Origin: Patescibacteria group bacterium
GTDB lineage: Bacteria; Patescibacteriota; Minisyncoccia; Moranbacterales; DUUL01
DNA: 64,000 nt
Direction of reading: 5' to 3'
Assembly: GCA_034660175.1 (NCBI GenBank)
Contig: JAYEIQ010000004.1
Coordinates: forward strand, 4,152 to 68,151
Part shown: one piece after another, positions 1-30,854 of the stretch
Layout of the letters: every line of letters begins with the position of its first letter
Numbering within the stretch: the stretch's first letter is position 1
The notes under the pieces: model-generated
The model's database searches: none
The model's input: the letters and a program-made list of their open reading frames with translations, nothing else
What the model was told of the DNA's origin: nothing
Made by a program: the position numbers and the translations under genes

Positions 1-97
1 CACATGAGCAGGAGGTTGCAGTTTTGACAGTAATCGAAATGATGGTTAAATAGGAAACAATTCAACAAACATTTGAAAGAGAAAAGGAGAAACGAAA

Positions 98-421
98 ATG
101 AAGAAGATCATGAAAAGTATGATGGTAGTAGTAGTTTATTTGGTGATATCTGGAGCAGTTTGCTGGGCTGGAGAGTATCAGTTTCAGGCAGGTGACAAGT
201 TTCCACAATTTCATCTTACACCAGTTGGACTTTCTATTTGGGGTAGTGCTATAGATAATGCAACGGGATTTAACAATCTAACTGTTCTAGAAGAAGACGT
301 TCCGTATGAGACAATTAAAGCTTGGTATGGGACCATGTTGGTAGCAAGGATAGCAGACAGAGTTGTTCGTATTATTTATGATGACAGTTCTGGCAAAATC
401 ACCAAGGTGATTCCATGGTAA
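98..421 (+). CDS. small secreted hypothetical protein
   Basis: 107-aa ORF with hydrophobic N-terminus (MKKIMKSMMVVVVYLVISGAVCWAG) resembling a signal peptide; AAGGAG RBS about 12 nt upstream; no recognisable family. Confidence 0.4.
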   Translation: MKKIMKSMMVVVVYLVISGAVCWAGEYQFQAGDKFPQFHLTPVGLSIWGSAIDNATGFNNLTVLEEDVPYETIKAWYGTMLVARIADRVVRIIYDDSSGKITKVIPW

Positions 422-465
422 AAGCTGTATATTAACGTTTTAAATATTTGGAGGGACAACGAGAG

Positions 466-513
466 TAGATCCCCTGACTTGGAAAAGTAACAAGCAGGGG
501 ATTTTATTTTGGC
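466..513 (+). terminator. hairpin followed by T-rich run downstream of ORF 98..421
   Basis: ATCCCCTG ... CAGGGGAT inverted repeat (8-bp stem, long loop) followed by TTTTATTTTGG. Confidence 0.35.
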
Positions 514-600
514 TGGATTTTTTTGCTTGTGAGATAGAATCAAAGTATTATTTTTAATTTGTTAGTTTCGTGAAAACAAATTAATCATAAAAAACAGAAA

Positions 601-759
601 AATGGAAAAGGTAGTGATGAAACTGAAAAAAGTTAATCGCTATAGTTATTCTTTAATTATTCCAAAAGAATTTATTGCAAAATACAGTTGGAGAGAGCGT
701 CAAAAATTTGTAATCAAGGATAAGGGAGGAGGGGCTGGAAATAAGAGATTGGAAAAATA
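601..759 (+). CDS. AbrB/MazE/SpoVT-type (swapped-hairpin) small DNA-binding protein
   Basis: 52-aa ORF (below ORF-track cutoff): MEKVVMKLKKVNRYSYSLIIPKEFIAKYSWRERQKFVIKDKGG...; pattern K-V-x-x-x-YS-l-IP-x-E-f and +E+QK-f-V-I matches the AbrB N-domain fold; paralogous to ORF 5923..6105. Confidence 0.5.
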
Positions 760-862
760 GATAGCTATCAAGTCTGGATTTTGTCATTGTTTCAATGTAT
801 ACTTATCGTATGTGACGCTGGATTGTGTCAGATGTGGTTTGTTATGATAAAAATAATAAAAA

Positions 863-1413
863 ATGAATATAAAAGGATACATCAAAGAATCAATTAAAGT
901 AAAGCAAATCATTCTTGAGAGTGAGAAGTTGATGGAGTTATTAAAATTTTGAATGGATGTTTTGTTGATTTGGGAAGATGTTGGTTACTTGGAATGGCGG
1001 AAGCATTGTTGATTCACAACACTTTGTTGCTGAGATTGTTGGCAGGTACAAGTTGGGGCGAAGGGGCTATCCAGTAATTGTTCTAACTACAGACACTTCC
1101 ATTTTGACTGCTTGGACAAATGATTATGAATACGATACTGTATTTGAGAGGCGAATTGAAGCTTTAGGAGAAGAGAAGGACGTTTTTTTGGAATTTCAAC
1201 TAGTGGTAATTCAAAAAGTATTGTTTTAGGTGTTGAAAAAGCGAAAAAAATGGAATGAGCACAGTTTATTTGTTGGGCAAAAATGAAGGTGAGCTGAAAG
1301 ATTTGGCAGATATATCGATTATTATTCCATCGAAAAACACACTAAGGATTCAAGAGGCATATATAATGATAGTTCATATTATTTGTGAAGAAATTGAAAA
1401 GAGTTTTAAATAA
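863..1413 (+). pseudogene. gmhA: phosphoheptose isomerase (GmhA/DiaA-family SIS domain) pseudogene with multiple frame disruptions
   Basis: GmhA-like segments spread over three frames: MNIKGYIKESIKVKQIILESEKLMELLKF (then TGA at 950), ...[39 protein letters not shown]...[19 protein letters not shown] (frame shift in T7 run 1183-1189), [19 protein letters not shown] (shift in A7 run 1244-1250), GMSTVYLLGKNEGELKDLADISIIIPSKNTLRIQEAYIMIVHIICEEIEKSFK; NGGSxxDSQHF, ISTSGNS and C-terminal motifs align to E. coli GmhA; N-terminal region additionally shortened. Confidence 0.65.
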
Positions 1414-1418
1414 AAAGT

Positions 1419-2936
1419 ATGAAAAAAGAAAACAGAAGATTCTTTAAAATTATTAAAAGATTTGATAAGAGAAGCATCTGTGTAATCGGGGATTTGATGC
1501 TTGATCAATTTATTTGGGGAAAAGTTAAGAGGATTTCCCCAGAAGCTCCAGTTCCGGTTGTGCTTGCGCAGAAAGAGACCTTTGTCCCTGGTGGTGCAGG
1601 TAACACTGCATTTAACATCGCATCTCTGGGAGGTAAAGTTACTTTAGTTGGTGTTGTTGGTGATGATTTATGTGGTGAACAATTGAAAAAGGAGCTTGAA
1701 AAAAGGAGAGTAAATGTTATGGGGATTGTTGTTGACAAAGGAAGACTAACCACACAAAAAACTAGAATTGTGGCAGAGAATCAGCACGTTGTGCGTGTGG
1801 ACAGGGAAAATGTTGAGAAGGTTGATGCTAAGATTTCAAAAGATATTTTTGATTTTGTCGTTAAGAACATTACGTATTTTGATTGTTTGGTTGTTTCTGA
1901 CTATGCGAAAGGGATGATTGAGAAAGAGTTGGCGCAGGGACTTATTGGACTTGCCAAAGAAAATAAAAAAATGATTGTGGGGGACATTAAACCTTGGCAC
2001 GCGTCGTTTTTTCAAAATATAGATCTCATTACTCCAAATTTAAAGGAAGCTCAAGAAATTTCAAAGAGAGATAATGTTGAGAGGATGGGGAGGGTTATTC
2101 AGTCGAAATTACATTGTAATGTTATCATCACTAAAGGCGCAGGAGGATTAAGCGTTTTTGAGGGTAAAAATATTAGTAATTTCTCAACTCAAACGAGGGA
2201 GGTCTATGATGACCCAGATGTCTATTATAAAAAAGATGACAGTCCCTTGACCAAGGCGGATTTGGCGTCAGAGAAAGTTCTTCTTGATCGTCTCAAAGAA
2301 TTTGGTGATTTTGGATTTTTGTCTGAGGAAAGTGCCGATGATAAATCAAGGTTGGACAAAGAATATACTTGGATTATCGATCCATTGGATGGAACAATGG
2401 ACTTTATTCAAAAGACAGGAGAATTTTCAGTGATGGTTGGTTTGGTGAAAGGTGGGTTGCCAGTAATGGGTGTGGTCTATCAACCATCAATTGAGAAAAT
2501 ATATTTTGCAGAGAAAAGCAAAGGGGCTTTTGTGCGAATCGGTCAGGGAGCTGAGATCAAACTACGAGTTTCGCAAGTTTCTGACTTGAAGGAGGCTCGT
2601 TTGGTGGTGAGTCGCAATCACTTGAGCAAAAGGGATAGCTCTGTTGCAATTGATATGGGATTGGGTAACTATGTTCAAGCAGGCTCGAATGGAGTGAAGA
2701 TGTGTTTTATTGCTCAGGGGAATGCAGAACTGTTTTTCAACTCATGGACAGGATTTGGTGAATGGGACAGTTGTGGTCCGGATTTGATCTTGAGAGAGTC
2801 TGGAGGAGTGGTAACTGGTATGGATGGAAAACCGCTCAAATATAACAAAGAAGTTCCAAAAAGCGATCGTGGCATTGTTGCCAGCAACGGATTGCTTCAC
2901 GATGACATAATCAACAACTTTGCAAAAAGGAAATGA
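1419..2936 (+). CDS. fusion protein: HldE domain-I-like heptose-7-phosphate kinase (pfkB family, C-terminally truncated) fused to CysQ/inositol-monophosphatase-family phosphatase
   Basis: N-terminal 300 aa align to E. coli HldE kinase domain (ISPEAPVPVV, PGGAGNTAFNIASLGG, VVSDYAKG, TPNLKEA ... TQTREVYD); C-terminal half aligns to CysQ (EVYDDPDVYYKKDDSPLTKADLASEKVLL..., WIIDPLDGT, WDSCGP); junction at shared VYD; ribokinase GAGD motif absent. Confidence 0.7.
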   Translation: MKKENRRFFKIIKRFDKRSICVIGDLMLDQFIWGKVKRISPEAPVPVVLAQKETFVPGGAGNTAFNIASLGGKVTLVGVVGDDLCGEQLKKELEKRRVNVMGIVVDKGRLTTQKTRIVAENQHVVRVDRENVEKVDAKISKDIFDFVVKNITYFDCLVVSDYAKGMIEKELAQGLIGLAKENKKMIVGDIKPWHASFFQNIDLITPNLKEAQEISKRDNVERMGRVIQSKLHCNVIITKGAGGLSVFEGKNISNFSTQTREVYDDPDVYYKKDDSPLTKADLASEKVLLDRLKEFGDFGFLSEESADDKSRLDKEYTWIIDPLDGTMDFIQKTGEFSVMVGLVKGGLPVMGVVYQPSIEKIYFAEKSKGAFVRIGQGAEIKLRVSQVSDLKEARLVVSRNHLSKRDSSVAIDMGLGNYVQAGSNGVKMCFIAQGNAELFFNSWTGFGEWDSCGPDLILRESGGVVTGMDGKPLKYNKEVPKSDRGIVASNGLLHDDIINNFAKRK

Positions 2937-4618
2937 TTAGTCCTCATGGTGGCAAATTGGTTGACAAGACTTTTGTTGGTGATGCAAGTGCTGAGACTGC
3001 TCGATTGAGAAAGATTGTGGCAACATTGAAAATTGGTCCGAATCAAATTCAAGATATTGTCAATATAGCTCAAGGGGTGTTTTCGCCCCTTGATGGTTTT
3101 TTGAGGGAGAACGAATTTCTATCTGTTTTGAATGAAATGCGTTTGAATGATGGGACGGTTTGGCCGATTCCTATTGTTTTAGATGTTCTAACGGCTGAGA
3201 AAAAAAGATTAGAACAACAAGAAAAAATTCTTTTGATTGATTCAAAAAATCAGCCAGTTGCTTTTTTGTCGAACTCTTCTTTTTTTCGTTTTGATAAAGA
3301 AGAATTTGCTTTGAAAGTTTTTGGAATCACGGATCAAAATCATCCTGGAGTCAGGGATGTTTTTGAGATGAAGGAATTTTTAATTGGAGGGAAGATTGAG
3401 TTGATTGGGCAGTTTCGAGAAAGTGTTGTCCTAAAGAGTCCTGCAGAGATTAGAAGTGAATTTTTGAAGAGGGGTTGGGAATCAATTGTTGCTTTTCAAA
3501 CTCGCAATGTTCCACACAGGGGGCATGAATTTTTACAGAAGGAGGCTTTAAAAAAAGTAGACGGATTGTTTGTCCAGCCAGTGATTGGAGAAAAGAAAAT
3601 GGATGATTTCAAAGATGAGTATATTATTGGGAGCTATGAGATTTTGATTGAAAAGCATTTTCCTGCTGGTAAGGCAATGCTTGGTGTATTGCCACTCAAA
3701 ATGCGTTATGGTGGACCAAAGGAAGCGTTGCTTCATGCAATCATTCGCAAAAATTTTGGTTGCACCCATTTCATTGTTGGTCGTGATCATGCTGGGGTGG
3801 GTGATTTCTATCATCCAACGGAAGCACAGGAAATATTTGAACAATTTGGTCCAAGCGAGCTTGGAGTTGAGATCTTGAAATTTCCAGAGGTGGTGTTCGA
3901 CAAAGAAAAAGGAAAACACTGTTTTGTTGACGAATGCTCTGAATCGAATAGGATAAGGTTCAGTGGCACAAAGTTGAGAGATTTTGTGAAAAACAAGAAA
4001 GAGCCTCCAAGACACTTGATCAGGCGTGATGTGTTCGAGTTGCTCTCGAGTAGTGATAATTCGTTAGTTGATGAAAATTACAAAATGAAAACAAGCAAAA
4101 GAGGATTTGTTCTTTGGTTCACAGGATTGTCTGGTGCAGGAAAAAGCACTGTTGCGGATTTGGTTTTTGAGCATCTGAGGGGTAATGGCACCAGAATTGA
4201 GAGGCTTGATGGTGATGTTGTCCGGGAGAATTTGGCTCAAGATCTTGGTTTTTCCAAAAAAGATCGTGACGAGAACATTCGTCGAATTGGTTTTGTAGCA
4301 GACCTGCTTTCTCGCAATGGAGTGGGAGTGATTGCTTCTTTTATTTCTCCCTACCAAAAACAGCGAGATGAGCTGCGCAAAGAAGTCGAGAATTTCATTG
4401 AAGTTTTTGTGAATGCTCCTTTGGAGATCTGTGAGGAGCGAGATCCAAAGGGAATGTATAAAAAAGCTCGAGCGGGTGAGATCAAGAACTTTACTGGAAT
4501 TTCTGATTCCTATGACTCACCAAAAGACCCAGACATTGAACTGAGAACTGACAAGGGAACACCAAGAGAGTGTGTACAGCAGGTGATAGATTATTTAGAC
4601 GAAAAAGGCTTCATTTAG
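2933..4618 (+). CDS. bifunctional sulfate adenylyltransferase (ATP sulfurylase) / adenylylsulfate kinase (PAPS synthase)
   Basis: N-domain motifs QTRNVPHRGHEFL and VGRDHAGVGDFY (ATP sulfurylase); C-domain P-loop GLSGAGKSTVA and APS kinase-like region; ATG overlaps upstream TGA (ATGA) indicating translational coupling. Confidence 0.85.
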   Translation: MISPHGGKLVDKTFVGDASAETARLRKIVATLKIGPNQIQDIVNIAQGVFSPLDGFLRENEFLSVLNEMRLNDGTVWPIPIVLDVLTAEKKRLEQQEKILLIDSKNQPVAFLSNSSFFRFDKEEFALKVFGITDQNHPGVRDVFEMKEFLIGGKIELIGQFRESVVLKSPAEIRSEFLKRGWESIVAFQTRNVPHRGHEFLQKEALKKVDGLFVQPVIGEKKMDDFKDEYIIGSYEILIEKHFPAGKAMLGVLPLKMRYGGPKEALLHAIIRKNFGCTHFIVGRDHAGVGDFYHPTEAQEIFEQFGPSELGVEILKFPEVVFDKEKGKHCFVDECSESNRIRFSGTKLRDFVKNKKEPPRHLIRRDVFELLSSSDNSLVDENYKMKTSKRGFVLWFTGLSGAGKSTVADLVFEHLRGNGTRIERLDGDVVRENLAQDLGFSKKDRDENIRRIGFVADLLSRNGVGVIASFISPYQKQRDELRKEVENFIEVFVNAPLEICEERDPKGMYKKARAGEIKNFTGISDSYDSPKDPDIELRTDKGTPRECVQQVIDYLDEKGFI

Positions 4619-4645
4619 AGTTGAATACTTGGTCTGATTTTTGGA

Positions 4646-4666
4646 CAGCCTCCAGGCTGGTTTTCG
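4646..4666 (+). terminator. putative intrinsic terminator after PAPS synthase gene
   Basis: CAGCC-TCCA-GGCTG hairpin followed by GTTTTCG. Confidence 0.35.
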
Positions 4667-4739
4667 TTAGGAATGTGATATATAATGTTTTTTATAGCAG
4701 AAAAATAGAGAAGTGAACATCAAGCAGTAAACAAGTGCC

Positions 4740-5858
4740 ATGAAGGTTTTGTTGTTAAATTATGAATTTCCACCAATTGGAGGGGGTGCAGCCACTGCCA
4801 CCCTCAATTTATTGAGGGAGTTTTCCAAAAGAAACGATGTTGAAGTGGATTTGATCACTTCATCTGTTGATAAAGAGAGGCAGGAGCAATTCAGTGAGAA
4901 TATCAAGATATATTTTTTGGACATTGAAAAAAATGGAAGATTGCACAATCAATCCAATGCTGATCTTTTGAAATATAGCTGGAAGGCTTGGAGACTTGCA
5001 AGGAAGCTGAGAAAGGAGAAAAAGTATGATCTGATCCATTCGTTTTTTGGAATTCCGTGTGGATTCGTTGCGATGTTGTTAGGGATGTCATATGTTGTGT
5101 CACTGCGAGGGTCTGATGTTCCGTTCTACAGTGAAAAATACAAATTGTTGGACACTTTGCTTTTTCAAAGATTGAGCAGAAGAATCTGGAAAAAAGCAGA
5201 TGTTGTTATTGCGAACTCTGAAGGTTTGAAAAAACTTGCGTTAAAGAGCTCACCAAAGCAAGAAATTGGTGTGATTTACAATGGGGTGGATACGGAAATT
5301 TTTGCTCCATCACAAAAAAAGCCAGAGGAGTTCACAATTATTTCAACTTCAAGACTTGAAAAACGCAAAGGGCTTGAATTTTTAGTTGAAGGGTTTGGAA
5401 AATTTAACAAACAATACAAGGACAGTAGATTGATCTTGATTGGTGGTGGTGATCAAGAGAATAAGCTTAGAAAAATATCTCATGATTTGGGTGCTGAGAG
5501 TGTAGTTGATTTTGTGGGCGTTCTTGATTTAGGCGAGCTTTCAAAGTGGTATAAGAAAGTGGATGTTTTCTCGTTGCCTTCATTCAACGAAGGCATGAGC
5601 AACTCTCTTTTGGAAGCAATTGCAAGCGGGTTGGCAATTGTTGCGACTGACACTGGAGGAACAAAAGAGTTAATAAATGATTCAAACGGTATTATTGTTG
5701 AAAAAGGTAGCAGTGAGGATGTTTTCAGGGCGTTTGAGAAACTGTACACGGACAGGCAATTGCTTGAATCAATGAAAGAGAAAAGTCGAGAAAAAGCACT
5801 TGTGATGAGTTGGATAAATATGTCAAATCAGTATTTAGAGGTATATAAAAAAGTATAG
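4740..5858 (+). CDS. GT-B glycosyltransferase, family 4-like
   Basis: 372 aa; N-terminal EFPPIGGGAATATLNL (GT4 N-domain), C-terminal FSLPSFNEGMSNSLLEAIASGLAIVATDTGGTKELI (Glycos_transf_1 E-x7-E region). Confidence 0.8.
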   Translation: MKVLLLNYEFPPIGGGAATATLNLLREFSKRNDVEVDLITSSVDKERQEQFSENIKIYFLDIEKNGRLHNQSNADLLKYSWKAWRLARKLRKEKKYDLIHSFFGIPCGFVAMLLGMSYVVSLRGSDVPFYSEKYKLLDTLLFQRLSRRIWKKADVVIANSEGLKKLALKSSPKQEIGVIYNGVDTEIFAPSQKKPEEFTIISTSRLEKRKGLEFLVEGFGKFNKQYKDSRLILIGGGDQENKLRKISHDLGAESVVDFVGVLDLGELSKWYKKVDVFSLPSFNEGMSNSLLEAIASGLAIVATDTGGTKELINDSNGIIVEKGSSEDVFRAFEKLYTDRQLLESMKEKSREKALVMSWINMSNQYLEVYKKV

Positions 5859-5896
5859 AGCTAGCTCTATACCTAGCTCTATACCCATGTTATAAT
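5854..5896 (+). promoter_or_regulatory. operator-like repeat array plus extended -10 upstream of AbrB-like ORF
   Basis: 18-bp perfect palindrome TATAGAGCTAGCTCTATA (5854-5871) followed by a direct repeat of the half-site TAGCTCTATACC (5874-5885), then TGtTATAAT extended -10 (5888-5896) 27 nt upstream of start 5923. Confidence 0.4.
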
Positions 5897-5922
5897 CATG
5901 CTGTAGAATTGAAACGAAAACT

Positions 5923-6105
5923 ATGGCTCAAACAAAAAAAGAAGAAAGAATAACAAGAAAGCTTCAAAGAGTAGGTAGGGGGAGAACTTACAGCATCACA
6001 ATTCCAATCGAAATTATTCGTTCTTTTGGTTGGAAAGAAAAACAAAAGTTGGTTTTTGAAGCAGATAAAAGAAGAAATGTGATCAAGATCAGAGATTGGG
6101 AATAG
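5923..6105 (+). CDS. AbrB/MazE/SpoVT-type small DNA-binding protein (paralog of 601..759)
   Basis: 60 aa: ...RKLQRVGRGRTYSITIPIEIIRSFGWKEKQKLVFEADKRRNVIKIR matches swapped-hairpin AbrB N-domain pattern (R+V...-IP.E+R......+..+......I.I). Confidence 0.55.
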   Translation: MAQTKKEERITRKLQRVGRGRTYSITIPIEIIRSFGWKEKQKLVFEADKRRNVIKIRDWE

Positions 6106-6142
6106 AATATTAATTAATTTGGAGAGATAACAATAAACTTCA

Positions 6143-6859
6143 ATGTTGAAGCTGATTAAAGACAACTGGGCCAAACTAGCTGATCAATTGGCGGGCAAGA
6201 AGCTTTACTGGTTCAAGAGTCCTTCTGGGATCTTACTTCTGGGTGCCACCGAAAAGATCTTAAATAAATATTGTAGAGGAAAAGTTTTGGATGTTGGAGC
6301 AGGGAGATTGGCATACAAATCATTGCTAGAGAAACATTGCGAGGAATATAAAAGCATTGATTTTAAGGCAACCAGTCCTGAACTTGATTTTGTTGGTGAC
6401 GTACAAGACATGGAAGTTTTGAATGATGATCAATTTGACACAGTTTTTTGTTCTCAGGTACTGGAACATATTCCAGAACCTCAAAAAGCAATGAACGAGA
6501 TCAGTCGAATCTTGAAACGCGGTGGAAAGGCGATAATCTCAGTTCCTTTTTTGGGGTATTTACACAATGAGCCTTATGATTTTTTTCGTTATACGAAACA
6601 TTCTTTGAGATTTATTTCTAAGAGAGCGGGATTTGAAGTTGTGGAAATAAATGAGGTTGGTGGATTGTTTTCCTTTCTCGGCTACATTTGGTCTACTTTT
6701 TTTATTGGGTTATTTGCTGGAATTCCATTTTTGGGATATATAGTATTGTTAGTAAATATTCCGCTTTCATATTTTTTTATTTTACTTGATGTTGTTACGA
6801 TGAATAAGAAACTGATGCCATTGAACTATCTTTTTATTCTTAAAAAAAGGGATGTATAA
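6143..6859 (+). CDS. class I SAM-dependent methyltransferase with C-terminal hydrophobic segment
   Basis: motif I VLDVGAGRLAYKSL, FDTVFCSQVLEHIPEPQKAMNEISRILKRGGKAII (Methyltransf_11-like); C-terminal TM-like stretch. Confidence 0.7.
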   Translation: MLKLIKDNWAKLADQLAGKKLYWFKSPSGILLLGATEKILNKYCRGKVLDVGAGRLAYKSLLEKHCEEYKSIDFKATSPELDFVGDVQDMEVLNDDQFDTVFCSQVLEHIPEPQKAMNEISRILKRGGKAIISVPFLGYLHNEPYDFFRYTKHSLRFISKRAGFEVVEINEVGGLFSFLGYIWSTFFIGLFAGIPFLGYIVLLVNIPLSYFFILLDVVTMNKKLMPLNYLFILKKRDV

Positions 6860-7961
6860 AATAGGGTTTGTTGTAAGAGCAATAAACAAGGGTGGAGGTG
6901 TAAAAATGGTTGTAAAAAATTTGCTGAAAAAAATTGATTTGTTGATGTTCACAAAGAGAGATTTGCAATTCATTGTCTATGCTGACAAGGAATATGATTT
7001 CTTGAGAGGATTGAAAAATATTAAAGTGGAAATTATTAAAAAACACAATGTGCTGCTGTGGGATAATATTTATCTGTATTGGAAACTAAAAGGAGATGGT
7101 TTGGATTGTGTTGTTTATCCCAAAAATGTTATCCCTCCTTCAAATCTCTCTTTAAAGTGCAAAAAGATGATTATTGTTCACGATTTAGCACATTTCAAAC
7201 AAGGTCTTAATGCATATAAATTTTGGGATGTTGTTTATATGAAAATGATGATAGGTGCTTCTTGTAGAAAAAGCAACCATATATTTTCAATTTCAGAGTT
7301 TACTAAAGAGAAAATAGTGAAAGAATTTAACATGAATGAAAGTAAAATCACGGTAATTCATGAGGGGGTAGAAAAAAAATTCAAAGAAATAAATAACAAA
7401 AAATTATTAAGCGAGGTGGTTGATAAGTATGGATTACAATTGCCTTTTTTTCTATATCCTGGATCAATCAGCCCGCGGAAAAATATTCTCAGAATTTTGG
7501 AGGTTTTCAATAATATCAAACATGAGATTCCTCACATGCTCTATTTTACGGGAGCGCGAGGGTGGAAAAATAAAGAGGTTTGGGAATATATAAGAGAAAA
7601 AAATTTGCAAAAAAGAGTTAAAAAAATAGGATATGTCAAGGAGAATGAACTCCCAATCTTTTATAATCTTGCAGATCTGTGTTTGTATCCAAGTCTCTAT
7701 GAGGGTTTTGGGTTGCCTATTCTTGAGGCACAGGCATGTGGGTGTCCCGTATTGACGTCCAATGTTTCAAGCTTGCCGGAAGTTGCAGGAAATGGAGCTG
7801 CTATTGTTGATCCATACTCAACGGAAGATATAAAAAAAGGTATATTGAAAATACTCAGAGACGGTAAATATCGAGAGGTGTTGGTAAAAAGTGGTATGGA
7901 GAATGTAGGAAGGTATAGCTGGAAAACATCTGCGAAGAAGATTGTTGAAAAAGCATCTTAA
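6852..7961 (+). CDS. GT-B glycosyltransferase, family 4-like
   Basis: 369 aa; C-domain motif YPSLYEGFGLPILEAQACGCPVLTSNVSSLPEVAG; start overlaps upstream gene by 8 nt. Confidence 0.8.
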   Translation: MYKIGFVVRAINKGGGVKMVVKNLLKKIDLLMFTKRDLQFIVYADKEYDFLRGLKNIKVEIIKKHNVLLWDNIYLYWKLKGDGLDCVVYPKNVIPPSNLSLKCKKMIIVHDLAHFKQGLNAYKFWDVVYMKMMIGASCRKSNHIFSISEFTKEKIVKEFNMNESKITVIHEGVEKKFKEINNKKLLSEVVDKYGLQLPFFLYPGSISPRKNILRILEVFNNIKHEIPHMLYFTGARGWKNKEVWEYIREKNLQKRVKKIGYVKENELPIFYNLADLCLYPSLYEGFGLPILEAQACGCPVLTSNVSSLPEVAGNGAAIVDPYSTEDIKKGILKILRDGKYREVLVKSGMENVGRYSWKTSAKKIVEKAS

Positions 7962-7979
7962 ATTTAGGTAAAATCTTTT

Positions 7980-8864
7980 ATGGCAGAGAGTGATTTCAAA
8001 ATTGACTTTGTTGGTGTCGGGGCGGAAAAAGCGGGTAGTTCATGGGTTGCTGCCATGCTTGATGCGCATCCTGAAATTTGTCTTTCGCAACCGAAAGAAG
8101 TGCAGTATTTTAATGAAAAATCAAGTTATACAAGGGGATTGAATGCAAACTTCAACAAGGGTTTTGGTTGGTATGAAAAGCACTTTATCCATTGCAAAAA
8201 AAACTCAATTAAAGGTGAGTTTTCCACTGCCTATTTGCCAGATAAAACTGCTCCTAAAAAAATATTTCAGAGTTTTCCGGGAGTAAAATTGATCGTCTGT
8301 TTGAGAGATCCCGTTGATAGAATGTACTCCCAGTATTGGATGTATAAGAATTATTTTCTCAAAGAAAAAAGACCTTTTAGTGAGGTCGTGAGAGAGGAGA
8401 AAGAATATACAGAAAAAAGTCTGTATTTTAAACAGATAAAAGAATATCTGAAATATTTTTCACTTGAGAATATCCTATTTATAACACTTGATGAGATAAA
8501 GGAAAATCCGAAGATATGCCACAAAGCGTTATACAAGTTCGTTGGGACAAGGAATGTGGACTTTGTTCCAGGGAAAGGTGTCTTTGGGAGAAAAAATAAG
8601 GCGAAGAGAGTTAGATTTAGGTCTGGGCTTGTTCTAATTAACAGATTATCAAAGATATTCATATTTTTAGGTTTCTCTCGAGTTTTGAAAGTTCTTGTTA
8701 AGTACGGGTTCAAGGACTTTTGTTTGAGAATAATTTCGGATGAAAGTAGATATCCTCCAATAGACAAAGGATTGAGAAGCGAGTTGATTAAAAAATTTAT
8801 TTCTGATATTGACGATTTTGAGAGACTGACGGGAAAGAACTTAAGTTCATGGAAAAAAACATGA
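7980..8864 (+). CDS. sulfotransferase-family protein (PAPS-dependent, Sulfotransfer_3-like)
   Basis: N-terminal 5'-phosphosulfate-binding-like loop GVGAEKAGSSWVAAML (cf. PKSGTTW) and 3'-phosphate-binding-like RDPVDRMYSQYW; size and layout typical of bacterial sulfotransferases; co-located with PAPS synthase. Confidence 0.6.
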   Translation: MAESDFKIDFVGVGAEKAGSSWVAAMLDAHPEICLSQPKEVQYFNEKSSYTRGLNANFNKGFGWYEKHFIHCKKNSIKGEFSTAYLPDKTAPKKIFQSFPGVKLIVCLRDPVDRMYSQYWMYKNYFLKEKRPFSEVVREEKEYTEKSLYFKQIKEYLKYFSLENILFITLDEIKENPKICHKALYKFVGTRNVDFVPGKGVFGRKNKAKRVRFRSGLVLINRLSKIFIFLGFSRVLKVLVKYGFKDFCLRIISDESRYPPIDKGLRSELIKKFISDIDDFERLTGKNLSSWKKT

Positions 8865-9994
8865 GACATTCAAAAAAATTAAGAGTAGCTCTTTTGACGC
8901 CAGATTTTCCTCCAAACCCGCGAGGTGGTTGTGGTGTAAGTTCTAACTTACTTGTGCAAGAGCTTAGAAAGTTGGGTTTATGTGTTGATGTGTATAGAGT
9001 AGGAAAGAAGGAGATAGCAGAGAAAAGCTCAAGTGGCAACATTTATCACTTTGTTGGTTTTCGGAAAGTTCCTATGATCAATAATTTGTTTGCGGTTATT
9101 CTTCTTCGCGGGAGGCTAAAAAAATATGATATAATACATGTCTACAATATGAGTCTTATCCCTGCAGCTGTACTCCTGAAGGGGAGAGATTCAAAAATAT
9201 TTGCCACTATCAACAACACAAATGGAGCTGTCGCTAGTACCTTTGTTGGAAAAAGAAAATTCAAGAATAAGATTAATGACTGGTTAACAACGTGGATGAT
9301 TAAACTTTTTAGAGGTGGTGTAGATTGCTATATTGCGCTCACTGCTTTTTTGAGGAGGCTGTATATTGAAAATGGTTATGTTGGTCACAAAATCAAAATG
9401 GTGCCGAATATGTATGATGAAATTTTTGTGGCAAAGCGCAATAAAGAGAGCAGAAAAGATGGGCATGTAAGGATTTTGTACGTTGGTCAGCTTGGTGACA
9501 ATAAGGGCGTATTGGATTTAGCTGTAGTGTGTAAGGATTTGTTAAATGACAAAAAATGGAAAGATAAACTGAAGGTAAAAATAATAGGAGATGGAAAGTT
9601 GAGGGGGGTAATTGAGACAATTTTAAAGAGGGAGATAGAGAGTGGTTCGGTCGAGATCTTTAACGAGCAATATGAAGATCTCCCTGATGAATATTGGAAC
9701 TCAGATCTGCTTATTCATCCTGCAAAATGGGATGAGCCCTTTTCAAGAACCTGGCTTGAAGCCATGGCTTCAGAGTTACCCATTTTATCATCGGACAATT
9801 CTAGTGCCAAAGAAGTTCTTGCTGGTTATGCTATTTTTTTCAAAATGGGAGATAGAGAGAGTTTGAAAAGAGCCATGTTGGAATTTTTAAAAAACAAAAC
9901 AAGGGAAGACGACGGTTTTTTTGTTGAAAGATTTAACCCGAAGAAGGTAACGAATAAAATAGTAAAATATTATCAAATAGAACATGAAATATAA
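8849..9994 (+). CDS. GT-B glycosyltransferase, family 4-like
   Basis: 381 aa; N-domain LLTPDFPPNPRGGCGVSS; C-domain AKWDEPFSRTWLEAMASELPILSSDNSSAKEV; alternative start at 8861. Confidence 0.75.
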   Translation: MEKNMRHSKKLRVALLTPDFPPNPRGGCGVSSNLLVQELRKLGLCVDVYRVGKKEIAEKSSSGNIYHFVGFRKVPMINNLFAVILLRGRLKKYDIIHVYNMSLIPAAVLLKGRDSKIFATINNTNGAVASTFVGKRKFKNKINDWLTTWMIKLFRGGVDCYIALTAFLRRLYIENGYVGHKIKMVPNMYDEIFVAKRNKESRKDGHVRILYVGQLGDNKGVLDLAVVCKDLLNDKKWKDKLKVKIIGDGKLRGVIETILKREIESGSVEIFNEQYEDLPDEYWNSDLLIHPAKWDEPFSRTWLEAMASELPILSSDNSSAKEVLAGYAIFFKMGDRESLKRAMLEFLKNKTREDDGFFVERFNPKKVTNKIVKYYQIEHEI

Positions 9995-11198
9995 CATTCA
10001 CTACTTTAACGAGGCTTTGTATCCTGGCATGTCGGCAAATAAAGTTGCAAGAGTAGAGATGGCCAATTCATTCTTGAGGGTTGATAAGGTTGAAGGAGTG
10101 TTTTTTTGGTTTCTCAGTAATCGATATTTTTTTAACGAAAGGTCCTGTTTTGCAAATCAGTCACTGGATAAAGGGGTTACCCCTAAGAGAGTTTGGGTAC
10201 CTTTTTTCTCTGACCCTCTTGAAGTGACTGGAACAAAGATTGATAAGGCTGTCAGATTTGTAACAAAAAGGGTATTGTTTCTATGGGCTCTAGTTTTTTT
10301 TGCTATAAAAAGATTTGAAAAAAGTGACCTGGTTTTCATTAGAGGAGAACAATTTGTTCTTGCTTTTTGTCTGGGGGCTTTATTGAAAAATGTGAAATTT
10401 TCTTTTGAAGTTCACAATTATGAATTCGGAAAATTTTTTTTAAGAGATTTTCTCTATAGGAGAGCCAGCAAAAAGGCGAACGTTATAATTGTCATATCTG
10501 GCTATTCAAGAAATCACATGGTCAGAAATGGTGGTATCAAAAGCAGTGCAATTGTGAACCTTCCAAGCGGAGTTAATATCCAGAGATTCTCTGAACTTAG
10601 TGGAGACAATGCAGACTATGATTTAAGATTGGAGATTGGTGCTAGAGAAAATGCTAAAATAGCCATCTATACTGGAAGTTTACATAAGAACAGAGGGATA
10701 GAAGACATTTTGTTCTGTGCTAAAAAAACTCCCAACATCGAATTTGTTATTGTGGGAGGTAATAAGAGTCAAATAGAAGAGTATTTATCAAAACCTGATG
10801 GTGATGCAAAAAATATTCATTTTGTTGGCTATAAATCTAATAAATTGATTCCATCTATTGTAAGTCAAGGGGACGTATTGTTGGCGCCATATTCAAAAAA
10901 AATTAAAACTGTTATGCATATGAGCCCAGTGAAACTTTTCGAATATGCAGCAGCTGAAAAACCAGTGGTGGTTTCTAATATATCAGCTATAAGAGAGATT
11001 TTCAACGATGACGAGGTTAATTATTTTACTCCTGATGATAGGCGTGATTTGCTGAGATGCACAAGAGAAGTTTTCGATAACTATGATGTTTGTCTAGCTA
11101 AAGCAGGAAGGGCAAAAAGAAAAGCTGAGCTCCATTCTTGGGATAATCGAGCGAAAACAATCTTTAAATTATTAAAGAAGGATAATGAACAAAAATAA
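9984..11198 (+). CDS. GT-B glycosyltransferase, family 4-like
   Basis: 404 aa; C-domain APYSKKIKTVMHMSPVKLFEYAAAEKPVVVSNISAIREIF (Glycos_transf_1-like); overlaps neighbours at both ends. Confidence 0.7.
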   Translation: MKYNIHYFNEALYPGMSANKVARVEMANSFLRVDKVEGVFFWFLSNRYFFNERSCFANQSLDKGVTPKRVWVPFFSDPLEVTGTKIDKAVRFVTKRVLFLWALVFFAIKRFEKSDLVFIRGEQFVLAFCLGALLKNVKFSFEVHNYEFGKFFLRDFLYRRASKKANVIIVISGYSRNHMVRNGGIKSSAIVNLPSGVNIQRFSELSGDNADYDLRLEIGARENAKIAIYTGSLHKNRGIEDILFCAKKTPNIEFVIVGGNKSQIEEYLSKPDGDAKNIHFVGYKSNKLIPSIVSQGDVLLAPYSKKIKTVMHMSPVKLFEYAAAEKPVVVSNISAIREIFNDDEVNYFTPDDRRDLLRCTREVFDNYDVCLAKAGRAKRKAELHSWDNRAKTIFKLLKKDNEQK

Positions 11199-11910
11199 AT
11201 TTGATTTGCAGAATAATCAATACAATTTTCCATATCACTATCTTGTTAATTTGAGAGAATATTCGAACTATAAGGAGCTTTCCTGGGGAATAATTTACTA
11301 TGCTTATATGAAGTATACAGTAGGGTATGTTTATAAGTCGGGCTGTAAATCATTGTTAGACGTTGGCTGTGGTGATGGGAGGTTGATAAGTGAGCTTGCT
11401 TCCAGTGATAGCAGTGGGAGTTATGTGGGGGTGGATCTCTCCGAATCGGCTATATTGTTGGCCAAGGCAATGAACCAGAATCTTAAGAATGCTAAGTTCT
11501 TACTGAAAAATGTTGGTCAGATAGAGGGAGAGTTCGACATCGTTGTGTTGAATGAAGTCTTGGAGCATATTCCTGACGAAGATCTTGGTGTTTTTACCGG
11601 GAACGTCATGAATAAGGTTAAATCAGGTGGTGTGTTAATAGTAACTGTCCCTTCGGTTAACGTGAAACTCAACGAGAAACATTTTAGGCATTATAATCTT
11701 GAGATGCTAAGAAAGCAGTTCGAGAAATTAAAATTACTAGAGAATGAAACAAAATATCTTTTTAAGAAAAATCTTTTTTACAAAATAATTAGAATATTTG
11801 CAAAAAGATTTAGATGTCCAAAATTGGAGTTGTTTCTGGCAAAAAAATTTTTATTTAATGCCAGAGATAAAAACTGTACCGACATTTTTGTTGTTTTTAA
11901 AAGAAAATGA
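11185..11910 (+). CDS. class I SAM-dependent methyltransferase
   Basis: LLDVGCGDGRLISELA (motif I), FDIVVLNEVLEHIPDED, SGGVLIVTVP. Confidence 0.7.
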   Translation: MNKNKFDLQNNQYNFPYHYLVNLREYSNYKELSWGIIYYAYMKYTVGYVYKSGCKSLLDVGCGDGRLISELASSDSSGSYVGVDLSESAILLAKAMNQNLKNAKFLLKNVGQIEGEFDIVVLNEVLEHIPDEDLGVFTGNVMNKVKSGGVLIVTVPSVNVKLNEKHFRHYNLEMLRKQFEKLKLLENETKYLFKKNLFYKIIRIFAKRFRCPKLELFLAKKFLFNARDKNCTDIFVVFKRK

Positions 11911-11913
11911 ACC

Positions 11914-12810
11914 ATGAGTAATAATTTTATTAGAAGAACTTGTTGTCCTGTTTGTGGAGGAAGAAAGAGAAGGGCTATTTATTTAAAGTCTTTCTCAGAT
12001 GACGATATTTGGGATTATTTGAATGAATTCTATGAGTCGAAAATCTCCAAGGACATTATAAAAGATGATTTTTACAGCATTGTAAAGTGTAAGAATTGTA
12101 GTTTGTTGTACCAGGAGTATATACTCAGTGATAAAAACATGTATTTGCTGTATGAAAATTGGATTTCCGCAGAAAGTAGTCTCCAGAAGAAAATGGTCTC
12201 TGATATTAAATTGTTTGAACAGTATGTTCTTGAGCTTAGGAGAATTTATTTGTTTCTCAAAAAGATGCCACATGAGATTAATGTTTTGGAGTATGGAATG
12301 GGGTGGGGATTCTGGTCAAGATTGGCCAAAGCATTAAATTTTAAAGTAACTGGAGTTGAGCTTTCCGAATCCAGGGTTGAATTTGCTAGGAGGAATGGAG
12401 TTAAAGTGATTGATGATATAAAAAAAGAATTGGATTGTGTTTATGATTATGTTTATTCGAATCAGGTTTTTGAGCATCTAACAGAACCAAAGAAAGAATT
12501 GATTGAATTGGCTAGAGTTTTGAAGCCAGGAGGCATTATAGATATCAAGGTTCCTAATTGTCAAAATTTTGAGAAAAAATTTGGTAAAATTAATTGGAGA
12601 TTAGGATCAAAACCAGTTCATCCACTAGAGCACATAAACTGTTTCAGTCGTCAATCTTTGAAGATATTAGCTAATCAAGCCAAGCTAAGTCTTGTTAGGC
12701 GTCCGTATTCTTTCGCGTGCTTCGGGATAAATTCATGTATAAAGGGTCATATCGAGTATATTAACGATGCATTTTTTTCAACAAACGTTTATATGAGGAA
12801 GAATAAGTAG
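11914..12810 (+). CDS. SAM-dependent methyltransferase with N-terminal Cys4 zinc-ribbon
   Basis: CCPVCGG ... CKNC zinc-ribbon; MTase motifs VLEYGMGWGFWSRLA, VFEHLTEPKKELIELARVLKPGGII. Confidence 0.65.
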   Translation: MSNNFIRRTCCPVCGGRKRRAIYLKSFSDDDIWDYLNEFYESKISKDIIKDDFYSIVKCKNCSLLYQEYILSDKNMYLLYENWISAESSLQKKMVSDIKLFEQYVLELRRIYLFLKKMPHEINVLEYGMGWGFWSRLAKALNFKVTGVELSESRVEFARRNGVKVIDDIKKELDCVYDYVYSNQVFEHLTEPKKELIELARVLKPGGIIDIKVPNCQNFEKKFGKINWRLGSKPVHPLEHINCFSRQSLKILANQAKLSLVRRPYSFACFGINSCIKGHIEYINDAFFSTNVYMRKNK

Positions 12811-12831
12811 TAAGAGTATAAAGAAAGTGTC

Positions 12832-14145
12832 ATGAAGAAAACAAAGAAGTGGATTAAAAACAGATTGGGAACCAAAAACAGGGAAAGATTTTTTTTTCTT
12901 TTCAGGCTAATCAAATATCTCAGGAAACAGACAAGGAGAATTTTCAGAGATCTTGGATCTGATGGTAGGTCAGAATTATTGCTTCCTAGTGAAGAATATT
13001 TCATTGAAGACAAGAATGTCTTTTTCGGTTATTATGATAAAAGTCCTTTTAGTGATAATGGAGAAGTTATTCTGGTACAAGTTGCTAAAGGTCAAAACAA
13101 ACATCCTCAAGTGGGTGATGAATTGATTGTTGGCTTTTTTTGCAGGCAGGCAGGCTCTTCTGGAAGAGGAATTGTTGAGTTAGGCAGGACTACCACATGG
13201 TGCTGGCAACAAGGTTGCAGATTGCAGTGGTTTCCTGGGGATGGGAGCAAAAAAATTATCTACAACAAATTGATAAATAAACGGTTTTCCTCGGTGGTTC
13301 AAGACACAGAAAGCAAAAGAGTGGTTAAGTCGCTTAGTTTTCCTGTGTATGATGTTGATCCAAGCGGGTCTTGTGCCTTAACATTGAGTTTTTCCAGACT
13401 ATATCGGTTAAGGCCAGGGTATGGCTATGCTGGGATTATTGATGAGACAATAGATGAAAAGATACCGTCTAGTGATGGAATCTGGCTTGGAAATATCAAG
13501 AAAAACGAAAAGAGTCTTTTATTAAGTTTAGAAAAAATTTCACAGATGGATTGGAATGAGAAGATGGTTGGGGCACAGCACTATGTAAATTTTATTTCTT
13601 ACAACAAGGATGGTAGTAAGTTTGCTTTTTTGCACGTTTGGGAAGGGGGGGAGGGGAGATCTGTGAGGTTAATGATTTTTGATTTTGCAAGAGGTGAGCT
13701 ATCTGTTGTTGGACAAGGTCATGAGATGGTTTCTCATTACTCTTGGATTGATGATAGTTCAATAATTTTTACATCATTAGCGAAAAAAGGATATGGAATA
13801 TACTACACATACAATACAATCTCAAAAGAAACTATAGTTGTAGGGGGGAACGAACTGACTGGAGACGGGCATCCGAGTGCTTGTGGTGATTCCTCTCTTT
13901 TCATTACAGACACGTCTGCTGATGAATATGGTGAGCGAAAATTGATTCTATTCGATGGACTTAAGGGCAAAAAGAGAGAACTTTTTAGGTTAGTCGATCC
14001 GATTGGATTTTGGGGTGAGGTGAGGTGTGACTTCCATCCAAGGTGGGATAGTTCTGGGCGCTATGTTTGTATTGATTGTCCTGTAAGTGGGAAAAGGAGA
14101 ATGTCGGTTTTTGATCTCAGTGTTGTTCTGAGGGATTTTTCTTGA
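12832..14145 (+). CDS. hypothetical protein (possibly beta-propeller-like), part of glycan island
   Basis: 437-aa ORF, no confident family; repeated hydrophobic/Gly-Asp turns; contains in-frame G7 tract at 13645-13651. Confidence 0.4.
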   Translation: MKKTKKWIKNRLGTKNRERFFFLFRLIKYLRKQTRRIFRDLGSDGRSELLLPSEEYFIEDKNVFFGYYDKSPFSDNGEVILVQVAKGQNKHPQVGDELIVGFFCRQAGSSGRGIVELGRTTTWCWQQGCRLQWFPGDGSKKIIYNKLINKRFSSVVQDTESKRVVKSLSFPVYDVDPSGSCALTLSFSRLYRLRPGYGYAGIIDETIDEKIPSSDGIWLGNIKKNEKSLLLSLEKISQMDWNEKMVGAQHYVNFISYNKDGSKFAFLHVWEGGEGRSVRLMIFDFARGELSVVGQGHEMVSHYSWIDDSSIIFTSLAKKGYGIYYTYNTISKETIVVGGNELTGDGHPSACGDSSLFITDTSADEYGERKLILFDGLKGKKRELFRLVDPIGFWGEVRCDFHPRWDSSGRYVCIDCPVSGKRRMSVFDLSVVLRDFS

Positions 14146-15331: not shown

Positions 15332-15357
15332 CGCACTCTCTTATATTATGAGATTTG

Positions 15358-28536: not shown

Positions 28537-28623
28537 TAATTTCATGAATGGACAGAAGGTGTAATAATGTTAAAATGTTAAAAGAAACAACAAAATAAAA
28601 AGTTATCAGATCCAAATAAAAAA

Positions 28624-29304
28624 ATGATCGTTTACGAAAATATTTCAAAAATATATCTAGGAAGTGCTCCAGCGCTGGAAAACATCAATCTCGAAATTCG
28701 TGAGGGCGAGTTTGTTTCTGCTGTTGGTCAATCTGGTGCTGGCAAATCAACGCTTCTGAAAATGCTCTATGCAGAGGAGGCGCCATCAACAGGAAACATC
28801 TATTTCCACAGGAAAAACATAGTCAATCTCAAGAACAAAGAGCTTCCATATCATCGTCGCAACATTGGAACTGTTTTTCAGGACTACAAACTGTTGCCAA
28901 AGAAAACTTTGTTTGAAAATGTTGCTTTTGCAATGGAAGTTGGGGGGAGAACGAACGAAGAGATTGATGAAGCTGTGCCACAAATTTTGGATATTGTCGG
29001 ACTTGGGAAAAAGACCGACAAATATCCGACAGAAGTTTCTGGTGGTGAGCAACAGCGAGCAGCTCTTGCTAGAGCTTTGGTGAACAAACCAAAGGTGCTT
29101 TTGGCTGATGAACCAACAGGAAATCTTGATCCAATTTCAACCTGGGAAATTGTTCAGTTGCTTTTAAAAATCAATGAATTTGGAACGACCGTGATTTTAG
29201 CAACACATGACAAGGGAATCGTGGATAAAATCTGTCGTCGAGTTATCGCAATGGACAGAGGAAAAGTTATTCGAGACGAAGAGAACGGAAGATACTGTAT
29301 TTGA
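28624..29304 (+). CDS. ftsE: cell division ABC ATPase FtsE
   Basis: Walker A GQSGAGKST, signature LSGGEQQRAALARAL, Walker B LLADEPTGNLD; followed by ftsX. Confidence 0.85.
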   Translation: MIVYENISKIYLGSAPALENINLEIREGEFVSAVGQSGAGKSTLLKMLYAEEAPSTGNIYFHRKNIVNLKNKELPYHRRNIGTVFQDYKLLPKKTLFENVAFAMEVGGRTNEEIDEAVPQILDIVGLGKKTDKYPTEVSGGEQQRAALARALVNKPKVLLADEPTGNLDPISTWEIVQLLLKINEFGTTVILATHDKGIVDKICRRVIAMDRGKVIRDEENGRYCI

Positions 29305-30832: not shown

Positions 30833-30854
30833 TGAGAAGAATGGGGCATTGTTA

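Follow-up and report, generated by a model that had tools for sequence, protein, structure and literature searches.

Genes for PAPS synthesis and a predicted carbohydrate-type sulfotransferase in a putative surface-glycan cluster of a Patescibacteria genome

Introduction

We analyzed a 64,000-nucleotide stretch of DNA from a Patescibacteria group bacterium (GenBank assembly GCA_034660175.1, contig JAYEIQ010000004.1, positions 4,152 to 68,151 of the forward strand), hereafter called the window. Genes for the synthesis of 3'-phosphoadenosine 5'-phosphosulfate (PAPS), a sulfotransferase gene and glycosyltransferase genes are co-located there at 1419–17391, compactly and mostly on the same strand. 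We propose that the PAPS made at this locus feeds the sulfation of a glycan and, judging from the genes, put the probability of this reading at roughly 0.72. The region is most likely a surface-glycan biosynthesis cluster of a bacterium of the candidate phyla radiation (CPR), equipped with its own sulfation module, and its product is most likely a sulfated, methylated surface glycan. Direct support comes from domain identities, intact motifs, gene overlaps, and a neighbourhood that is conserved, with gene fusions, in relatives.

Patescibacteria are abundant, uncultured episymbionts with reduced genomes, and their surface chemistry is almost unknown. Surveys count the sat and cysC genes of CPR bacteria as sulfate reduction or sulfur-cycle capacity (PMC7906910, PMC9698310, PMC12239599), and our literature search found no paper linking CPR to sulfotransferases.

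A bifunctional PAPS synthase

Domain calls come from a profile scan that took in approximately 51 large open reading frames (ORFs) across the 64 kb, with Pfam gathering scores and NCBIfam curated cutoffs as thresholds. By the ORF list and both profile collections, the first 17 kb of the window form a compact block, mostly on the plus strand.

The gene at 2933–4618 (plus strand) encodes a protein of 561 amino acids (MEA2006614.1), here called Sat/CysC, which carries in one chain the Pfam domains PUA_2 (163 bits, E = 5e-48), ATP-sulfurylase (255 bits, E = 4.5e-76) and APS_kinase (210 bits, E = 2e-62), the last specific for adenosine 5'-phosphosulfate (APS). It scored above the NCBIfam cutoffs for sulfate adenylyltransferase (NF003166, 426 versus 387 bits; TIGR00339, 379 versus 323) and for APS kinase (TIGR00455, 244 versus 139), and below the equivalog cutoff of NF004040 (PRK05537; 522.7 versus 669 bits). 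We read it as a protein of the same architecture as the NF004040 family that belongs to a divergent clade. Its motifs are intact in both halves: QTRNVPHRGH (residues 189–198), GRDHAG (283–288), GLSGAGKST (398–406), LDGD (425–428) and FISP (470–473). We take this set (QTRNxxHRxH, GRDHAG, P-loop, LDGD, FISP) to be catalytic in sulfurylase and APS kinase. The best match in the Protein Data Bank (PDB) was the bifunctional sulfurylase/APS kinase of Aquifex (2gks), with 412 bits over residues 28–561. A preliminary description of this DNA, made from the sequence and its ORFs, had named the protein a bifunctional ATP sulfurylase/APS kinase, and these profile scores, motifs and PDB match bear that out. 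The same description had reported an ATGA overlap with the ORF upstream; the start codon of Sat/CysC does overlap the stop codon of that ORF, at 2933–2936.

More than 120 homologs of Sat/CysC share 54–71% identity with it, and all of those that carry a taxon name are CPR (Patescibacteria, Kuenenbacteria, Dojkabacteria, Pacebacteria and Nealsonbacteria). A scan of GTDB genomes with Sat/CysC found no near relative; the best match was 60% identical, and most loci matched the CysC half only.

A predicted carbohydrate-type sulfotransferase

The protein that would consume this PAPS is encoded at 7980–8864 on the plus strand (294 amino acids, MEA2006619.1). It matched Sulfotransfer_1 (PF00685) with 69.2 bits against a cutoff of 22 and Sulfotransfer_3 (PF13469), the profile that the preliminary description had named as a check, with 37.8 bits against a cutoff of 27. 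Sequence searches of the PDB returned the bacterial protein 3rnl over its full length, followed by the heparan sulfate 3-O-sulfotransferases 3-OST-1 and 3-OST-5 and the N-deacetylase/N-sulfotransferase NDST1. The segments EKAGSSW (residues 16–22) and RDPVDRMYS (109–117) align to the PAPS-binding loops of 3-OST-1, which bind the 5'-phosphosulfate and the 3'-phosphate, and a PKE segment aligns to that of its catalytic glutamate; the sulfotransferase fold with PAPS-binding-like loops suggested earlier is thus confirmed at the level of alignment. Across 13 homologs, K39, R109, P111, R114 and S117 do not vary, E40 hardly does, and position 17 is lysine or arginine in most. From the literature on 3-OST-1 we assume that the lysine of the 5'-phosphosulfate-binding (5'-PSB) loop, the arginine and serine of the 3'-phosphate-binding (3'-PB) loop and the catalytic glutamate have the same roles here.

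An AlphaFold2 (AF2) model of the protein had a mean predicted local distance difference test (pLDDT) score of 89.5. Its top Foldseek matches were 3rnl, NDST1 and 3-OST-1, -3 and -5, with E values of 6e-13 to 1e-8 and template modeling (TM) scores of 0.63–0.71 normalised to the query. Tyrosylprotein sulfotransferases (TPST) and cytosolic sulfotransferases (SULT) came far behind, with E values of 1e-5 or weaker and TM scores of approximately 0.4. Because glycan sulfotransferases are nearest in structure and the tyrosylprotein and cytosolic enzymes are far behind, we predict that the 294-residue protein is a PAPS sulfotransferase of the carbohydrate type.

The gene begins 18 nt after a glycosyltransferase gene of family 4 (GT4_b), and its 3' end overlaps the start of another (GT4_c) as ATGA. 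This position bears on a different reading, which we consider improbable, in which the enzyme acts on an acceptor unconnected with the cluster, such as a protein tyrosine or serine, a lipid or a small metabolite. The acceptor is not readable from sequence, bacterial members of the Sulfotransfer_1 and Sulfotransfer_3 families sulfate peptides, lipids and polyketides, and the sulfotransferase domains of TPST, CurM and OLS do appear lower in the list of fold matches. Against an acceptor of this kind stand the top matches in both sequence and structure, which are glycan sulfotransferases (3-OST, NDST) and share the PKE catalytic motif, the much weaker TPST and SULT matches, the tight fit between glycosyltransferase genes, and the orthologs of the enzyme in two related loci (L084 and L086), which always lie between glycosyltransferase or methyltransferase genes and a flippase gene. 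A sugar of the cluster's own glycan would therefore be the probable acceptor.

Residues ~195–255 of the sulfotransferase form a variable, partly hydrophobic helical insert, LVLINRLSKIFIFLGFSRVLKVLVKYGF, which is also present in homologs and absent from the 3-OSTs. Such a segment might anchor the enzyme to the membrane. The methyltransferase encoded nearby at 6143–6859 likewise has a long hydrophobic tail.

The glycosyltransferase and methyltransferase operon

Downstream of Sat/CysC, all on the plus strand, lie the glycosyltransferase gene GT4_a (4740–5858; assigned by Pfam, as are the other GT4 genes, and a conserved partner of Sat/CysC in relatives), a small ORF of 60 amino acids (5923–6105), a gene for an S-adenosylmethionine (SAM)-dependent methyltransferase with a hydrophobic C-terminal tail (6143–6859; Methyltransf_11 and Methyltransf_23), which overlaps the next gene by 8 nt, and GT4_b (6852–7961). 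Between Sat/CysC and the sulfotransferase there are thus three large genes (GT4, methyltransferase, GT4) and the 60-residue ORF; the earlier statement that the sulfotransferase lies three genes downstream holds for the large genes. After the sulfotransferase come GT4_c (8861–9994), GT4_d (9984–11198), which overlaps its predecessor by 11 nt, two further SAM methyltransferases identified by Pfam (11185–11910 and 11914–12810), and a gene for a 437-residue protein (12832–14145), which matched no family and is the final gene of the plus-strand run. Successive intergenic distances from 6143 to 14145 are −8, 18, −4, −11, −14, 3 and 21 nt. Because all of these genes overlap or are separated by at most 21 nt, the sulfotransferase is locked into a GT4/methyltransferase operon.

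Two genes on the minus strand follow. The first (14117–15331) encodes a multi-pass membrane protein that is a candidate flippase of the Wzx type (Polysacc_synt_3), and the second (15358–17391) encodes a glycosyltransferase of the GT-C fold, PMT_2/ArnT-like, with 28.1 bits against a cutoff of 26.1. The latter is a candidate for transferring the finished glycan outside the membrane.

An independent assembly (L081) of sequencing run SRR26901924 reproduced window positions 2908–12382 with zero mismatches over 9,475 nt.

The 437-residue protein had no match in Pfam or PDB searches, and we found no homolog of it among the related loci that we examined; matches to TolB-like beta-propellers, with E values of approximately 0.5, were the sole hints. 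The 60-residue ORF and an ORF of 52 residues at 602–760, also on the plus strand, are paralogs that share segments of the form ...YS(L/I)(I/T)IP.E(F/I)I..(Y/F).W.E.QK.V... Judged by eye from their translations, both tentatively resemble AbrB/SpoVT-type DNA-binding proteins. One lies upstream of a gmhA pseudogene and the other upstream of the methyltransferase/glycosyltransferase/sulfotransferase operon. They may regulate the cluster or be antitoxin-like.

Conservation of the neighbourhood in related loci

Glycosyltransferases accompany Sat/CysC in several relatives. In locus L170 (Sat/CysC 68% identical), the order is GT1–cysQ–Sat/CysC–GT4–methyltransferase; its GT4 is 65% identical to GT4_a, and its intact CysQ of 264 amino acids overlaps the Sat/CysC start by an ATGA, as in the window. 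In L171 (71%), a GT4 gene whose product is 62% identical to GT4_a lies 2 kb downstream of Sat/CysC. In L167 (58%), Sat/CysC is fused to a GT4_a ortholog (47%) in one protein of 945 amino acids within a glycosyltransferase cluster, followed by a GT4_b ortholog (44%) and further glycosyltransferases. This fusion, P0302, is encoded at 3261–6098 of its locus, and the surrounding cluster also contains a B12-radical SAM enzyme. The arrangement cysQ–Sat/CysC recurs in L082 and L172.

The sulfotransferase has orthologs of 42–50% identity in L084 and L086, both with the layout GT4–(methyltransferase)–sulfotransferase–flippase–PMT_2. The flippase genes that flank these orthologs are clear Polysacc_synt members, L084, L086 and L082 each have a PMT_2 gene at the corresponding position, and the cluster of L084 includes a 52% ortholog of GT4_a.

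To look more widely, we scanned metagenomes with an alignment of 5 sulfotransferase sequences, the alignment of 13 being too diverse. A sat, cysC or cysQ gene was in view in 6 of the 82 loci with sulfotransferase homologs, a lower bound, since only 33 of the 82 are at least 8 kb long. L112 has contiguous sat, cysC and sulfotransferase genes, L124 has adjacent cysC and sulfotransferase genes, and in L118, L123, L130 and L133 a sulfotransferase homolog lies within 10 kb of sat, cysC or cysQ. Starting from the other side, tblastn with the sulfotransferase found no match in the 80 loci of the GTDB Sat/CysC scan, and a sulfotransferase hidden Markov model (HMM) found one real match in those loci, L054. 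Weak HMM matches in Thermoplasmata were attributed to P-loop kinases and set aside.

Predicted PAP removal and a chimeric reading frame

Transfer of the sulfuryl group from PAPS leaves 3'-phosphoadenosine 5'-phosphate (PAP), the substrate of CysQ. The preliminary description had placed a CysQ-containing fusion upstream of Sat/CysC. The CysQ-like half is indeed present; the whole is a chimera of a truncated kinase and a truncated CysQ. The ORF (1419–2936, plus strand, 505 amino acids; PfkB at residues 18–264 and Inositol_P at 265–501 in Pfam) joins, in frame, a remnant of an HldA/RfaE-domain-I kinase (residues 1–264) and a PAP phosphatase of the CysQ type (residues ~261–505).

Several lines say that the phosphatase half is CysQ, namely its best PDB match (CysQ, 3b8b), its top phosphatase model (TIGR01331), the frequent fusion of its relatives to APS kinase or to a sulfotransferase-like region, and the linkage to Sat/CysC, which cysQ immediately precedes both in the window and in L170, L172, L082, L001, L002 and L118. 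It matched Inositol_P (PF00459) with 168 bits, is 60% identical without gaps over 245 amino acids to residues 20–264 of the intact L170 CysQ, and retains its motifs (EE within residues 301–305, DPLDGT at 321–326 and WD-x11-GG at 449–463). Among its relatives, P0163, P0216, P0184, P0194 and P0208 include CysQ–APS kinase fusions in both orders, and P0163 (810 amino acids) carries, besides CysQ, a capsule-synthesis domain (NKWYS) and a segment that resembles sulfotransferases.

The kinase half shares 55% identity with the heptose-7-phosphate kinase of L083. It ends at REVYD, where its homologs continue with DVSGAGDT and approximately 55 further residues, and it scored 254.5 bits against a cutoff of 345 for TIGR02198, covering only positions 2–260 of the 315 in the profile. 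Because the full PfkB fold and the DxxGAGD anion-hole/catalytic motif are absent, we conclude from its sequence that this half is not a functional member of the family. At the junction (2196–2215, plus strand), REVYD aligns both with KEVFD of the kinases and with EFYE of the L170 CysQ, a microhomology of the form E-V/F-Y/F-D/E.

We found no comparable fusion among 5.8 billion proteins, in which each match to the 505-residue ORF spanned about half of it; these matches were stand-alone heptose-7-phosphate kinases of approximately 320 amino acids, with up to 55% identity, and one stand-alone Inositol_P protein of 280 amino acids with 50% identity. Nor did a similar fusion turn up when 1.84 billion representative proteins were searched exhaustively with HMMER. 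The sole protein matched in two stretches there, P0187, is a tandem Inositol_P phosphatase, and with matches otherwise of half length we rejected a recurrent, designed kinase–CysQ fusion. We also rejected a role for the phosphatase half as a heptose-1,7-bisphosphate phosphatase: the kinase has no catalytic motif, the normal cassette uses the haloacid dehalogenase (HAD) family enzyme GmhB (L083), and the phosphatase has as its ortholog (60% identity) a stand-alone CysQ whose gene is coupled to Sat/CysC. The chimera is, as far as its sequence tells, a one-off, lineage-specific product and no designed two-domain enzyme, with a predicted and uncertain activity.

The gene immediately upstream (790–1413, plus strand) is a pseudogene of gmhA, which encodes a sedoheptulose-7-phosphate isomerase of the SIS family. 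Followed along the intact GmhA of L083, its homology shifts through frames 2>1>3>2>1, which requires at least 4 frameshifts, along with in-frame stops, and an SIS_2 fragment matched at 978–1229. All of these frameshifts, at least 4 in approximately 620 nt, go in the same direction. L083 has an intact gmhA–hldA–gmhB–GT9 cassette; gmhB and GT9 were not found in the window. The heptose pathway has therefore apparently been lost. We suggest that the heptose cassette (gmhA–hldA) decayed and that the kinase remnant was then joined to cysQ by deletion or illegitimate recombination at the short microhomology, an event that would have left CysQ without its own start codon and dependent on that of the kinase remnant.

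The same decay could have reached the sulfation module. The chimera would then be a pseudogene product with a dead kinase and a misfolded, inactive CysQ; PAP might be removed by another enzyme, such as a phosphatase of the NrnA type, or the module might be on its way to being lost. We give this a real, minor chance of being right. The chimera is unique among all of the proteins searched, it lacks the kinase GAGD motif and the first ~19 residues of CysQ, and the gmhA next to it is a pseudogene. It is also missing from the protein collection, which does contain the products of neighbouring genes on its NCBI contig, as would fit a pseudogene call by the annotators. Finally, window 2908, where the independent assembly stops, falls within the 3' end of the chimera. 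That all of the metal-binding and catalytic motifs of CysQ are intact speaks against decay, as does the gap-free 60% identity to an intact ortholog. The 264 codons of the kinase remnant, and all 505 codons of the ORF, are uninterrupted, although the gene next to them has accumulated at least 4 frameshifts within ~620 nt; this suggests that selection has maintained the frame in which CysQ is read. The ORF and Sat/CysC are still coupled by ATGA, as cysQ and Sat/CysC are in L170, and the Sat/CysC, sulfotransferase and glycosyltransferase genes are all intact. We therefore prefer a chimera whose truncated CysQ moiety probably still hydrolyses PAP. As for the assembly, L081 ends 25 nt upstream of the Sat/CysC start; this break may reflect a strain variant or an assembly-graph branch upstream.

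Possible sulfate assimilation, and observations against glycan sulfation

PAPS is also the substrate of assimilation. If a PAPS reductase and a sulfite reductase were encoded elsewhere, the position of Sat/CysC in a glycan cluster would be incidental and the sulfotransferase would share the pool. Conventionally, sat and cysC in CPR and DPANN genomes are taken as sulfate-reduction genes (PMC7906910, PMC9698310). CysQ does not discriminate between the two fates of PAPS, because it clears PAP whichever enzyme makes it and is needed after CysH too. One Sat/CysC homolog, that of L168, sits among housekeeping genes, and our search for reductases in this genome covered a 64-kb part of a metagenome-assembled genome (MAG). 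The genes in view argue otherwise. No PAPS_reduct, NIR_SIR or cysteine synthase domain (cysH, sir, cysK) occurred in the ~51 large ORFs of the window, as the preliminary description had stated for cysH, cysI and cysJ in the vicinity, and none of PAPS_reduct, NIR_SIR and cysK was present among the Pfam-annotated genes of six related Sat/CysC contexts. An E. coli CysH probe matched only two loci and nothing in the window, a result on which we do not rely. The linkage to GT4 is conserved, to the point of a Sat/CysC–GT4 fusion in one relative. CPR bacteria, or Patescibacteria, generally have very limited amino-acid biosynthesis, and assimilatory reduction is probably absent from the rest of this genome as well. 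Taken together, we consider assimilation very improbable.

The preliminary description had argued that PAPS serves here as a sulfuryl donor rather than for assimilation. Our analysis supports that view, with a carbohydrate-type sulfotransferase in a GT4/methyltransferase operon, no cysH or sir in the window or the six contexts, a conserved and once fused GT4 neighbour, and sulfotransferase homologs that adjoin sat–cysC or cysC in other metagenomic loci.

Several observations weigh against glycan sulfation. Between Sat/CysC and the glycosyltransferase/sulfotransferase operon lie GT4_a and the 60-residue ORF, separated by gaps of 121, 64 and 37 nt, so that Sat/CysC may not be co-transcribed with the operon. 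The closest sulfotransferase orthologs (L084 and L086) have no Sat/CysC within 10 kb, and L168 has neither a glycosyltransferase nor a sulfotransferase near its Sat/CysC, its neighbours being purely housekeeping genes. The flippase assignment is sub-threshold (21 bits versus a cutoff of 23), and neither a sulfate transporter, among the large ORFs scanned, nor an initiating phosphoglycosyltransferase was recognised in the window. The chimeric CysQ lacks approximately 19 N-terminal residues, the first helix, corresponding to residues 1–19 of the L170 ortholog, and scored 165.1 bits against the TIGR01331 cutoff of 228.8. The negative for cysH and sir covers the window and six contexts, and a copy elsewhere in the genome is possible. 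Finally, the case is built on genes.

Other features of the window

The remaining genes of the window are housekeeping genes (prfB, ftsEX, mraZ/rsmH, penicillin-binding proteins, murE, fmt/def, priA, nrdD, frr, proS and mreBCD); a UDP-glucose dehydrogenase and a rhodanese are also encoded. The latter, a tandem rhodanese-domain protein at 36400–37266, is the only other sulfur-related gene of the window and is unrelated to sulfate activation. The release factor 2 gene prfB (27427–28536) has a classical programmed +1 frameshift site, CTT TGA C, at 27494–27500; therefore the mechanical ORF list gives only a TTG-started piece of 334 amino acids. GC skew is strongly positive (0.25–0.38) over plus-strand genes, in 1–14000, 28000–36000 and 42000–64000, and near zero over minus-strand genes, a marked bias of G over C on the coding strand.

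Proposed pathway and implications

In the pathway that we propose, Sat/CysC would make PAPS in the cytoplasm from sulfate and 2 ATP. Four GT4 enzymes would build an oligosaccharide, presumably on a lipid carrier at the inner face of the membrane, and three methyltransferases would O-methylate it. The 294-residue sulfotransferase would use PAPS to sulfate a hydroxyl (or amine) on a sugar of this oligosaccharide; because PAPS is cytoplasmic, sulfation must be cytoplasmic too, and we accordingly place it before export, the order of steps being otherwise our suggestion. PAP, the by-product, may be hydrolysed to AMP by the CysQ moiety of the chimera. Once complete, the glycan with its sulfate and methyl groups would be flipped by the Wzx-like protein and passed by the PMT_2 GT-C enzyme to a protein, lipid or wall acceptor.

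It is possible, at somewhat less than even odds, that the whole clade of Sat/CysC (with CysQ), whose named members are all CPR, feeds surface-glycan sulfotransferases and not sulfur assimilation or cycling. In that case, polyanionic glycans bearing sulfate and methyl groups would be displayed by many episymbiotic Patescibacteria, possibly for attachment to or recognition of their hosts, and the "sulfate reduction potential" ascribed to CPR and DPANN genomes from sat and cysC would be a misreading. Glycan sulfation would thus alter how these genes are counted in biogeochemical inventories, and this locus, its syntenic relatives and the Sat/CysC–GT4 fusion offer a concrete alternative, the supply of PAPS for glycan sulfation. 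The cluster suggests, moreover, a surface molecule that can be tested for and that may be involved in contact with hosts, and it supplies compact bacterial candidates, a PAPS synthase and a glycan sulfotransferase, for enzymatic sulfation work.

Comparison with known systems

PAPS genes together with a sulfotransferase in a capsule gene cluster are a described hallmark of sulfated polysaccharide synthesis (PMC11641403, PMC11766843). The cluster of Cobetia marina KMM 1449 contains cysNC, cysD, cysQ and a permease gene, and Vibrio sp. KMM 8419 has a similar cluster (PMC11766843, PMC11641403). Like the window, these clusters place PAPS-synthesis genes (with cysQ in Cobetia) and one or more sulfotransferases among the glycosyltransferases of a polysaccharide cluster. 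They differ in the sulfurylase, which in Cobetia and Vibrio is a heterodimeric CysD/CysN(-CysC), present as a second copy beside the assimilatory set, whereas the window has a homomeric Sat fused to CysC, apparently with no second copy in view. A sulfate permease and a Kps ABC exporter belong to the Cobetia and Vibrio clusters too; in the window, the export candidates are a Wzx-like protein and a PMT_2 GT-C enzyme, and no permease was seen. The hosts differ as well, being Gram-negative Gammaproteobacteria on the one hand and a CPR bacterium on the other.

In rhizobia, nodPQ with nodH (and LpsS), and in Xanthomonas, raxPQ with raxST, pair a dedicated PAPS supply with a sulfotransferase. There, as here, a sulfate-activation module lies beside a PAPS-consuming sulfotransferase and an extracellular molecule is modified. 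In contrast to the window, these systems use CysDN-like enzymes, their acceptors are Nod factor, lipopolysaccharide (LPS) and a tyrosine of RaxX, and they occur in other taxa. We know of none of them that is set in a GT4/methyltransferase operon of the kind described here.

Among single proteins, the SAT/APS kinase of Aquifex aeolicus (2gks) has the same order of PUA-like, sulfurylase and APS kinase domains as the window Sat/CysC, which differs in lying below the equivalog cutoff (523 versus 669 bits) and in forming a separate clade with all-CPR named members. The sulfotransferase shares with the heparan sulfate 3-OSTs, the NDST domain and 3rnl the fold, the 5'-PSB lysine, the 3'-PB arginine and serine, and a catalytic glutamate of the PKE type; it differs in its identity to them, which is only 16–22%, and in its extra helical segment. 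The fusions of CysQ to APS kinase or to sulfotransferase-like regions (P0216, P0184, P0194, P0208 and P0163) belong to the same CysQ subfamily and are likewise tied to PAPS metabolism, whereas the fusion partner of CysQ in the window, a dead fragment of a heptose kinase, has nothing to do with sulfur metabolism. Other bacteria are already known to combine PAPS genes and a sulfotransferase in a polysaccharide cluster, so that our finding extends this design without adding a new principle. What is new is the host lineage, the Sat–CysC type of synthase, and the implication for how sat and cysC in CPR genomes are to be interpreted.

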